NCBI RefSeq assembly: GCF_016026235.1
Contig: NZ_CP065613.1
Origin: Escherichia coli
GTDB taxonomy: Bacteria; Pseudomonadota; Gammaproteobacteria; Enterobacterales; Enterobacteriaceae
Direction: 5' to 3' (one strand)
Length of the DNA: 64,000 nt
In this document: in pieces, positions 10,418-16,452 of the stretch
Layout: each line of letters opens with the position of its first letter
How positions within the stretch are numbered: the first letter of the stretch is position 1
Program-made: the position numbers and the translations under genes
The notes under the pieces: generated by a model
What the model saw: the letters and a program-made list of their open reading frames with translations, nothing else
Database searches by the model: none
Told to the model about the DNA's origin: nothing

Positions 10418-10494
<77 letters not shown>

Positions 10495-10518
10495 TCACCG
10501 TACTGCTTTTACTTCATC

Positions 10519-10605
<87 letters not shown>

Positions 10606-10638
10606 TCACCGTACTGCTTTACTTCATCAAATTTTAAT

Positions 10639-10715
<77 letters not shown>

Positions 10716-12107: not shown

Positions 12108-12212
12108 ATGCCGGATGCGGCGTGAACGCCTTATCCAGCCTACAAATCATGCAAATCCAAAATATTGCAGGAGTTATGTAGGCCTGATAAGCGTAGCGCA
12201 TCAGGCATTTAT
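12108..12212. repeat. BIME-like pair of REP palindromes (mltA-tcdA intergenic)
   Basis: tgccggatgcggcgtgaacgccttatccagcctaca and tgtaggcctgataagcgtagcgcatcaggca in opposite orientation. Confidence 0.6.
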
Positions 12213-12259
12213 GCGTTTAGGGTGAGGGATAACCTCGCCCTTTTTAATTCTGAGGTGCT

Positions 12260-13116: not shown

Positions 13117-13560
13117 TTAAACCTGCTTCGTCGCAGCGATAATCGCCTCGCTTAACGCATTTAACCCCTGGCTGCGTGAGGCGCTAAGTTGCGCACGCAA
13201 TCCCAGCTCATCAAACAATGCCAGCGGCGACTGTGCCTGCAATTCGGCGGCGGTTTTCCCCTCAACGGCAGTCAACAGCACCGCCAGCAGGCCGCGCACT
13301 ATACGTCCTTCGCTGTCGCCAAAGAAGTGCATTTTACCGTTTTCAGCCACGGTATATCCCAGCCAGACGCGGTTTTCGCATCCGGCAATCTCTTTAGCCT
13401 GCGCTTTTAACTCGTCTGGCAAAGCCGGAAGCTGTTTCCCCAGCATGATCAACTGGCGATATTTATCTTCCCATTGCGTCAACGGTGCGAAGGTATTGCG
13501 TAACGTTTCTGCGGTTACGGTTGTGCCGAACGGATGTCCGGCGAATTGCGGGTTTGTCAT
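13117..13560 (-). CDS. csdE: Sulfur acceptor protein CsdE (SufE-like)
   Basis: 147 aa; matches recalled CsdE; start overlaps the csdA stop. Confidence 0.9.
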
Positions 13561-14765
13561 TAATCCACCAATAATTCCAGCGCGCGGTCAACGGCATTCA
13601 CCAGCGCATCCACATCACTCTTTGTATTATATGGCGCAAAAGAGGCGCGCAGTGTGCCGGTTACGCCTAATTCTGCCAGTAGCGGCTGAGCGCAATGTTG
13701 CCCGGCCCGCAAGGCAATACCGTACTCCGCCAGCAGCGTCACCATATCGCTGTGATGAACGCCAGCAAAATCAAAGGCCAGCTGGCTGGAATCCTGACAG
13801 CGGAATGAACGGAAGCCTGGACGTTTCGCCAGCGCATCTTCCGCCAGTGTTGCTAAACTACGGCTCCAGCTTTCGGCCTGGTTGATATCGTAATCTGCCA
13901 GCCATTCCAGCGCCGCGCTTAATCCTATGACACCAGCCACATTTGGCGTTCCTGCTTCCAGTTTCCACGGCGCAGATTGAGTCGTGAATCCGTCAAAACT
14001 CACTTCGTGAATCATTTTGCCGCCACCCAGCCAGGGCGACATCGCTTCCAGCAGTTCTGATTTGCCATACAGCACGCCGATACCCGTCGGGCCATACAGT
14101 TTGTGACCAGAGAAAGCATAGAAATCGATATCCAGTTGCTGAACATCCGCGGGGAAATGCACCGCCCCCTGAGCACCATCAACCATCACCACCATCCCGG
14201 CTGAATGAGCAAAGGTAATCGCTCGCGCCAGATCCGGGCAACCGCCAGTAACGTTCGACATCTGACCCAACGCCAGAATCCGACTACGGGGAGTAATCAG
14301 TTCTGGCAACAAATCGACATCCGGCAGTCGCTGCGCATTAAGCGGCAATTTCACCACTTTGGCTCCAGTTTGTTGGGCAACCATCAGCCAGGGGACGAGG
14401 TTAGCGTGGTGTTCTGCCACGCTGACAATAATCTCATCGCCCGGTTGCAGACGCGGACGCGCATAGCATTGTGCCACCATGTTGATGGATTCAGTGGTGC
14501 CGCGCGTCCAGACGATAGTTTTATCATCCGGTGCATTCAGTAATTGCGCCACTTTCTCTCGTGCAGCTTCATAACGCGCGGTCAGGCGTTGGGCTTCGGC
14601 AAACTGGCTGCGATGGACGTTTCCGGCGCTCAGGCTGTAAAACTGTCGAGTGGCTTCAACCACGGCTTCAGGTTTAAGCGCGGTCGCGGCGCTATCGAGA
14701 TAGACGCCCGCATCCTGTAGTGCGGGAAACTGGGCGCGAAACTGCGCGGGATTAAAAACGTTCAT
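13560..14765 (-). CDS. csdA: Cysteine sulfinate desulfinase / cysteine desulfurase CsdA
   Basis: 401 aa from ATG 14765 ([16 protein letters not shown]...); PLP-fold motif [10 protein letters not shown]; the track ORF adds 12 aa upstream. Confidence 0.9.
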
Positions 14766-14956
14766 GGTACTCCTCGGCTTGATGCACCGATCGTGACGCA
14801 AAATTCACTTTGATACAAGGAGAGTGCTAACCATCAGAATTATCTGGATATCCTGGCGAAGCCGCGTAAGTAACATATGCTGAATAGTGTTAGGCGTTAA
14901 TTTTAGCCTGTTAATCAATACTATTAAGATTTATTAATCGCTTTAAGGAGAAGATG

Positions 14957-15184
14957 ATGAAAAAGACTGCCGCAATTATTTCTGCCTGTATGCTGACTTT
15001 TGCCCTGAGCGCCTGTTCCGGTTCGAACTATGTGATGCACACCAATGACGGACGTACCATCGTCTCTGACGGCAAACCACAGACTGATAACGATACCGGT
15101 ATGATTTCGTATAAAGACGCTAATGGCAACAAACAGCAGATCAACCGTACTGACGTGAAAGAGATGGTCGAACTGGATCAGTAA
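14957..15184 (+). CDS. ygdI: DUF903 lipoprotein YgdI
   Basis: 75 aa with lipobox (LSACSG); start may be 14954 or 14957. Confidence 0.8.
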
Positions 15185-15200
15185 TTCGCGATCGCAAGGT

Positions 15201-15406
15201 AAAAAAAAGCACCGCAATTAGGCGGTGCTACATTAATCACTATGGACAGACAGGGTAAATGTACAGGAAGTGAAAAAAGGTAGCTTTGCTACCATGGTCT
15301 GAATCGCAGACCAATTGCAAACACAACAACACAACATCACAACCGTAAGCCAAAAGTTCACCAGAACACGCATTCCGATAAAACTTTTCGTTCCGGCTCA
15401 GGAAGT
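15201..15406 (-). ncRNA. gcvB: GcvB small regulatory RNA
   Basis: Reverse complement begins ACTTCCTGAGCCGGAACGAAAAG, contains the GU-rich R1 region and ends in the hairpin GCACCGC..GCGGTGC plus U-run; 206 nt; divergent from gcvA. Confidence 0.9.
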
Positions 15407-15534
15407 GCCGCCACTATAGGTATTTGCTGGTAGAAGCTCAACGGACAATTTATAATGGCTCAGATTAAAAAAACTAATAGGTTACACAGTGTAATCTAAT
15501 TGTTAAATTCATTTAACATCAAAGTTTAAAAGCC

Positions 15535-16452
15535 ATGTCTAAACGATTACCACCGCTAAATGCCTTACGAGTTTTTGATGCCGCAGCACGCCATTTAAGT
15601 TTCACTCGCGCAGCAGAAGAGCTTTTTGTGACCCAGGCCGCAGTAAGTCATCAAATCAAGTCTCTTGAGGATTTTTTTGGGCTAAAACTGTTCCGCCGCC
15701 GTAATCGTTCACTCCTGCTGACCGAGGAAGGGCAAAGCTATTTCCTCGATATCAAAGAGATATTTTCGCAATTAACCGAAGCGACGCGTAAACTCCAGGC
15801 CCGTAGCGCCAAGGGGGCGTTGACGGTCAGTTTACTCCCCAGTTTCGCCATTCATTGGTTGGTTCCGCGACTTTCCAGCTTTAATTCAGCTTATCCGGGA
15901 ATTGACGTTCGAATCCAGGCGGTTGATCGTCAGGAAGATAAGCTGGCGGATGATGTTGATGTGGCGATATTTTATGGTCGGGGCAACTGGCCGGGGCTAC
16001 GGGTGGAAAAACTGTACGCCGAATATTTATTGCCGGTGTGTTCGCCGCTACTGCTGACAGGCGAAAAACCCTTGAAGACCCCGGAAGATCTGGCTAAACA
16101 TACGTTATTACATGATGCGTCACGCCGTGACTGGCAGACATATACCCGACAGTTGGGGTTAAATCATATCAACGTTCAGCAAGGGCCAATTTTTAGTCAT
16201 AGCGCCATGGTGCTGCAAGCGGCTATTCACGGGCAGGGAGTGGCGCTGGCAAATAACGTGATGGCGCAATCTGAAATCGAGGCCGGACGTCTTGTTTGCC
16301 CGTTTAATGATGTTCTGGTCAGTAAAAACGCTTTTTATCTGGTTTGTCATGACAGCCAGGCAGAACTGGGTAAAATAGCCGCCTTTCGCCAATGGATCCT
16401 GGCGAAAGCCGCTGCTGAACAAGAAAAATTCCGCTTTCGTTATGAACAATAA
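15535..16452 (+). CDS. gcvA: Glycine cleavage system transcriptional activator (LysR family)
   Basis: 305 aa; N-terminal HTH (LNALRVFDAAARHLSFTRAAEELFVTQAAVSHQIKSLE). Confidence 0.95.
   Translation: MSKRLPPLNALRVFDAAARHLSFTRAAEELFVTQAAVSHQIKSLEDFFGLKLFRRRNRSLLLTEEGQSYFLDIKEIFSQLTEATRKLQARSAKGALTVSLLPSFAIHWLVPRLSSFNSAYPGIDVRIQAVDRQEDKLADDVDVAIFYGRGNWPGLRVEKLYAEYLLPVCSPLLLTGEKPLKTPEDLAKHTLLHDASRRDWQTYTRQLGLNHINVQQGPIFSHSAMVLQAAIHGQGVALANNVMAQSEIEAGRLVCPFNDVLVSKNAFYLVCHDSQAELGKIAAFRQWILAKAAAEQEKFRFRYEQ

Follow-up and report, generated by a model that had tools for sequence, protein, structure and literature searches.

Which gene lies between ygdI and gcvA in this Escherichia coli sequence, and does the hairpin at its end serve one transcript or two? 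The window, i.e. the whole stretch of 64,000 nucleotides that was analysed, was scanned for RNA families, and the locus was searched for terminators and promoters and compared with its counterparts in E. coli K-12 and in other enterobacterial genera. We consider it practically certain that positions 15201-15406 of the minus strand represent the E. coli gcvB gene, which encodes a GcvA-controlled, Hfq-dependent and untranslated small RNA (sRNA) repressing transport and biosynthesis mRNAs, and that its terminator t2 also marks the end of the ygdI mRNA. The finding is correct but ordinary, gcvB being an already known textbook gene. Identity, anatomy, conservation and synteny of the locus, as well as the complementarity of region R1 to the dppA and oppA leaders, were computed here; its control, Hfq dependence, repressing activity and 3' ends are taken from the literature.

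Rfam scan of the whole window returned a single match to GcvB (RF00022), placed exactly at 15201-15406 on the minus strand, at 199 bits (gathering score 42; E = 1.1e-46). The match was not cut off and covered positions 1-204 of the 204 positions of the model. The same 206 of 206 bases form the ncRNA gene gcvB of K-12 MG1655 (b4443, 2942696-2942901), and a chance resemblance to GcvB was rejected on the grounds of this complete identity and of the E-value. The window is reversed relative to K-12 MG1655, K-12 coordinates being equal to 2958102 minus the window coordinate. The RNA starts (+1) at 15406 and ends at 15201, and nucleotide n of GcvB therefore corresponds to the window position 15407 - n. 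The assignment of +1 is confirmed by the motif CUGUC, which falls on nt 154-158, in agreement with the numbering published for the mutR3 construct (PMC3536696). The location of a gcvB sRNA at these coordinates, its length of 206 nt and its divergent orientation with respect to gcvA, as given in the preliminary description, are thereby confirmed by the Rfam match, the K-12 annotation and the position of gcvA, correspondingly. Coordinates of all features are collected in Table 1.

Table 1. Features of the gcvB locus and its surroundings; positions are those of the 64-kb window, RNA positions are counted from the gcvB +1.
Feature	RNA nt	Window position	Strand	Sequence	Basis
gcvB gene, 206-nt GcvB sRNA		15201..15406	-		Rfam RF00022 and K-12 b4443 identity
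Stem-loop 1	7-61	15346..15400	-		Minimum-energy and centroid folds, Rfam consensus pairs
R1, G/U-rich single-stranded seed	63-92	15315..15344	-	GGUUGUGAUGUUGUGUUGUUGUGUUUGCAA	Composition and centroid fold
Stem-loop 2	94-112	15295..15313	-		Fold
Internal terminator t1	114-134	15273..15293	-		Terminator scan
R2 conserved region	135-150	15257..15272	-	CACUUCCUGUACAUUU	Sequence; upper-case in Rfam consensus; PMC9299463
R3 pairing region	148-174	15233..15259	-		Defined in PMC3536696
Terminator t2	178-206	15201..15229	-		Terminator scan
gcvB promoter, sigma-70-like		15413..15441	-		Consensus scan; ends 7 nt before +1
Conserved upstream block, gcvB -32 to -72		15438..15478	-		Near-invariant columns, 14 genera
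gcvA, LysR-type regulator, 305 aa		15535..16452	+		ORF; RefSeq annotation
ygdI, 75 aa, DUF903 lipoprotein gene		14957..15184	+		ORF; K-12 annotation
csdA, beyond ygdI		13560-14765	-		ORF list / K-12 annotation

The gene is a constant component of the species. All but one of 5426 complete E. coli genomes contained its 1.8-kb neighbourhood, and the 206-nt sequence was at least 99% identical in 5389 of the 5425 matching ones. In records annotated with PGAP in RefSeq the gcvB RNA is mostly unannotated (feature column "none"); the curated K-12 record annotates it. In three of the 5425 genomes, no gcvB match extended over 80% or more of the gene. In E. coli OkiPb01677 (NZ_AP042483.1), the match to gcvB is split between two sites, of which the first accounts for nt 1-125 only; this suggests that the gene is interrupted there, e.g. 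by an insertion.

For the comparison across genera, one genome per species was scanned for the exact R2 motif, which gave 120 loci. From these, 15 loci, each of a different enterobacterial genus, were taken for comparison together with two loci of other phyla, and the 16 aligned sequences were those of E. coli and the 15 other enterobacterial genera. Full-length GcvB was identified in all 15 enterobacterial loci with 137-190 bits; by Rfam scan it was absent in the two loci from other phyla, which are chance matches to the R2 motif and serve as controls. In all 14 other loci with enough flanking sequence, gcvA was adjacent and divergent, at the distance of 102-297 nt. R1, R2, R3, the stem of t2 and the promoter block were nearly invariant, and the two variable hairpins maintained their pairing. 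The invariance of R2 in this alignment was forced, the loci having been selected with the R2 motif; nt 151-170 of R3 (ACCCUGUCUGUCCAUAGUGA), situated outside the selection motif, were likewise invariant in the 16 sequences.

The ATG of gcvA is located 128 nt from the gcvB +1. The predicted gcvB promoter comprises the -35 hexamer TTGAGC (15441..15436), a 17-bp spacer and the -10 hexamer TATAGT (15418..15413), and it is identical to that of K-12 out to -80. Across 14 genera, the -35 TTGA (with G or T as the fifth base) and the -10 TATAGT were invariant. The near-invariant block further upstream contains ATTAG-T7-AATC, with CTAAT read on the plus strand at 15474-15478, and the sequence beyond it, further from gcvB, was not conserved in these genera. 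This block is likely the site of the activator GcvA common to the divergent gcvA and gcvB promoters, since the conservation pattern fits a shared activator site and the location of the GcvA region known from the literature: the GcvA binding region has been placed in the gcvA-gcvB control region (PMC1557403, Fig. 1 legend). The gcvA-gcvB intergenic region differs from that of K-12 by three single bases, at window positions 15487, 15493 and 15530 (gcvB -81, -87 and -124), which fall just outside of the conserved promoter and activator block.

The elements of the RNA follow the order stem-loop 1, R1, stem-loop 2, t1, R2, R3 and t2. The whole molecule was predicted to fold with -62.1 kcal/mol, against -47.1 ± 4.1 kcal/mol for its dinucleotide shuffles (z = -3.6), and it folded better than 200 of 200 shuffles. 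In stem-loop 1 the basal stem was conserved, and the pairing of the apex hairpin was kept with different sequences in other genera. The hairpin of stem-loop 2 was retained in all 16 sequences with compensatory changes, from U-A to C-G in Serratia silvae and Morganella and from G-C to A-U in Moellerella. RNAalifold run on the plain MAFFT alignment revealed only the base of stem-loop 1, t1 and t2, together with two helices of invariant pairs that are absent from the Rfam model (covariation -0.49). The apex of stem-loop 1 and stem-loop 2 were misaligned, and single-sequence folding recovered both hairpins, each at an unchanged position.

Two terminator-like sites, t1 and t2, were scored on the gcvB strand. 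The former consists of the hairpin GGUAGCAAAGCUACC at nt 114-128 (15293..15279), followed by six U residues at nt 129-134. Termination at t1 is described to give an RNA of about 130 nt and that at t2 the 206-nt RNA, with older fusion data placing about 90% of gcvB transcript ends at t1 (PMC1557403); the 3' end at t1 is absent from the Term-seq lists of Adams et al. 2021 (PMC7815308). In one growth condition, those data show a 3' end inside GcvB, at nt 68 (window 15339 on the minus strand; K-12 2942763(+)), where R1 starts; it may be a cleavage product. Downstream of t1, the octamer ACUUCCUG inside R2 duplicates the first 8 nt of GcvB.

R1 is the GU-rich target-binding region already pointed out in the preliminary description, and its composition and complementarity bear that description out. 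Nucleotides 63-92 are 90% G/U, as are nt 59-89, and a pure G/U run of 19 nt occupies nt 71-89 (window 15318-15336); G/T or A/C runs of at least 20 nt were found nowhere in the 64-kb window. R1 was mostly unpaired in the centroid fold, and its core GUUGUGAUGUUGUGUUUGCAA was conserved in all 16 sequences. It has been named the main seed of GcvB, with a minority of targets, including cycA, gdhA and phoP, served by R2 and R3 (PMC9299463, PMC3536696). Against the K-12 dppA leader, R1 gave a duplex of -27.1 kcal/mol at positions -44 to -11 (AACAACAAACAUCACAAUU), just upstream of the Shine-Dalgarno sequence, where 14 of 300 dinucleotide shuffles were as good (mean -21.4 ± 3.0 kcal/mol). The corresponding duplex with the K-12 oppA leader had -23.1 kcal/mol and extended from -10 to +15 across the start codon, with 8 of 300 shuffles as good (mean -17.7 ± 2.5 kcal/mol). 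Since the shuffles preserve the C/A richness of the targets, this control is conservative and the significance of the results modest. Only R1-only runs were used; duplex prediction with full-length GcvB ignores intramolecular structure and was set aside. R1 is complementary to the C/A-rich initiation regions of dppA and oppA, which is a statement on complementarity, the regulation of both being known from the literature.

At the other end of the molecule, the stem of t2, AGCACCGC/GCGGUGCU (15229..15208), comprises 8 bp with six G-C pairs and a loop of 6 nt. It is followed by an eight-U run at nt 199-206, the first U of which (15208) doubles as the last base of the stem. The preliminary description had credited gcvB with a terminator hairpin of its own, and this stem with its U run is that hairpin. 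Seven central pairs were invariant in the 16 sequences and the outermost pair varied. The U-tailed 3' end is expected to bind Hfq; co-immunoprecipitation with Hfq enriched GcvB 33-fold in Salmonella (PMC2515195). The dominant gcvB 3' end in Term-seq maps to K-12 2942894(+), i.e. window 15208 or nt 199, rather than to nt 206 (PMC7815308), and this position at the first U of the tail may reflect a mapping or trimming effect.

The same hairpin had also been described as placed to terminate the convergent ygdI, a claim of which the position stood and the canonical terminator did not. Between the stop codon of ygdI and the 3' end of gcvB there is a distance of 16 nt, and the t2 hairpin, which begins 24 nt past the stop codon, is the only terminator-like hairpin in the gap. 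The primary 3' end of ygdI maps to K-12 2942870(-), i.e. window 15232, 3 nt past the t2 stem (PMC7815308, supplementary file 1, two sheets). The hairpin is about equally stable in both directions, with -13.8 kcal/mol as read on the gcvB strand and -14.4 kcal/mol as read on the ygdI strand. Past it, the plus strand reads ACAUUAAUC (also given as ACAUUAAU), without a U-tract, and t2 is therefore not a canonical intrinsic terminator on the ygdI strand. In accordance with this, the terminator scan found no terminator-like site on the plus strand in 14700-15700 and scored t2 on the minus strand only. As regards bidirectional terminators, t2 lacks the arrangement of an A-tract before and a U-tract after one hairpin that defines a bidirectional intrinsic terminator; published Term-seq does map a 3' end of either strand to this hairpin. 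The ygdI 3' end at 15232, at a hairpin without a U-tract on its own strand, could result from termination or from exonuclease trimming back to the hairpin. No specific account of gcvB and ygdI sharing a bidirectional terminator emerged from a search of the literature.

With these ends, the ygdI mRNA is antisense to the final 32 nt of gcvB (15201-15232), and one may ask if the overlap is regulatory, i.e. whether convergent transcription or an RNA duplex couples ygdI expression to the level or stability of GcvB. The perfect complementarity of the ygdI 3' untranslated region to these 32 nt and the overlap of the mapped 3' ends speak for it. Moreover, published data place a strong, bicyclomycin-sensitive region of Rho-dependent termination opposite ygdI on the gcvB strand, at K-12 2943134(+) or window 14968 on the minus strand (PMC7815308, supplementary file 2), so that some transcripts are likely to run through t2 into antisense ygdI and to be stopped there by Rho. 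Nevertheless, pairing between the two RNAs is disfavoured by the stable hairpin into which each of the overlapping parts is folded, ygdI does not occupy the position downstream of gcvB in most genera, and the deletion of ygdI did not reproduce the acid-resistance phenotype of gcvB (PMC2676305). We consider this reading improbable, and give the same low credence to a functional overlap in which ygdI transcription is linked to the termination efficiency or stability of GcvB; if true, the link would act via polymerase collision at a hairpin with a one-sided U-tract or via an RNA duplex.

Even less probable is that t2 evolved primarily as the terminator of the protein-coding ygdI and is borrowed by GcvB. 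The ygdI 3' end just past the hairpin does have a high Term-seq score, and no other terminator-like hairpin follows this gene; nonetheless, the U-tract is present on the gcvB strand only. Furthermore, the hairpin was conserved in all 15 other genera, with ygdI in convergent orientation downstream of gcvB in five of them and missing from there in ten; in Yersinia and Hafnia, ygdI is 159 and 73 nt away, respectively. Since t2 was kept in 15 genera and the convergent ygdI in only five, the hairpin is primarily that of GcvB, its use by ygdI being, as judged from conservation, secondary and lineage-limited. As for the reading of the locus as a small-protein gene, with GcvB as an mRNA or a dual-function RNA, its probability is negligible and it was rejected, as the longest sense ORF (46 aa, ATG start, 15233-15373 on the minus strand, from RNA nt 34) is not conserved as a coding sequence. 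Besides E. coli, this ORF was present only in Citrobacter (46 aa) and Cedecea (44 aa); Raoultella has a truncated form of 29 aa, and the remaining 12 sequences lack it despite conserved RNA sequence and structure. Its ATG, moreover, is inside the helix of stem-loop 1.

As the gene of a regulatory RNA, gcvB is best explained as follows. It is transcribed leftward, on the minus strand, from the sigma-70 promoter, with a GcvA-bound control region common to the divergent gcvA. According to the literature, GcvA activates gcvB when glycine is available, and GcvA together with GcvR represses it (PMC1557403). The intrinsic terminator t2 ends transcription and yields the 206-nt, Hfq-dependent RNA, which is untranslated, as stated for gcvB RNAs (PMC1557403). 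Many mRNAs of amino-acid and peptide transport and biosynthesis, among them dppA, oppA, livJ, cycA, gdhA and phoP, have C/A-rich stretches at or close to their ribosome-binding sites; single-stranded R1, and for some targets R2 and R3, base-pairs with these stretches and thereby blocks translation. The convergent ygdI mRNA also ends at the t2 hairpin.

Apart from GcvB, the window contains other RNAs. A full-length CsrB sRNA (Rfam RF00018, 378.5 bits) is located at 33587-33946 on the plus strand and has its customary series of GGA hairpins as well as a terminator; the Serratia and Edwardsiella loci also contain CsrB, at a distance of several kb from gcvB. Three tandem tRNA genes at 10421-10715 on the minus strand correspond to the K-12 initiator tRNA-Met cluster metZ-metW-metV, and the related locus of Proteus alimentorum has eleven tandem tRNA copies with roughly 100-nt spacing. 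An Rfam match to the sRNA ES036 (CssrF) was recorded at 12143-12185 on the plus strand with 46.5 bits (gathering score 37.6); it is situated between mltA and tcdA and flanked by two REP-like palindromes. It is followed by a terminator-like hairpin at about 12221-12250, and an 'orphan' 3' end of the Term-seq data, K-12 2945855(-) or window 12247, coincides with this hairpin.

As gcvB of this strain is identical to the K-12 reference, it adds no new biology. What the locus does illustrate is that a known sRNA, with its exact ends and strand context, is recognisable from the raw sequence alone, as was done in the preliminary description.

Compared with known systems, the closest is gcvB of K-12 MG1655, which has, besides the identical 206 nt, the same neighbours, with gcvA divergent, ygdI convergent and csdA beyond. 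GcvB of Salmonella, Yersinia and other Enterobacterales shares the architecture described above together with the divergent gcvA and the same R1 core, R2 and R3, and its published functions are the same (PMC9299463, PMC1557403). Within this group, R1 of E. coli, Citrobacter, Raoultella and Cedecea is 7-8 nt longer and has an extra GU repeat in comparison with the group from Yersinia to Proteus. Among other sRNAs, RybB and DapZ are Hfq-dependent multi-target molecules with a single-stranded seed and a 3' end formed by an intrinsic terminator, and the seed of DapZ resembles R1 of GcvB. They have in common with GcvB that the seed pairs in the vicinity of ribosome-binding sites and that Hfq binds to a terminator with a U-tail, whereas GcvB belongs to a different family, is longer and possesses three pairing regions, an internal terminator and control by GcvA and GcvR.
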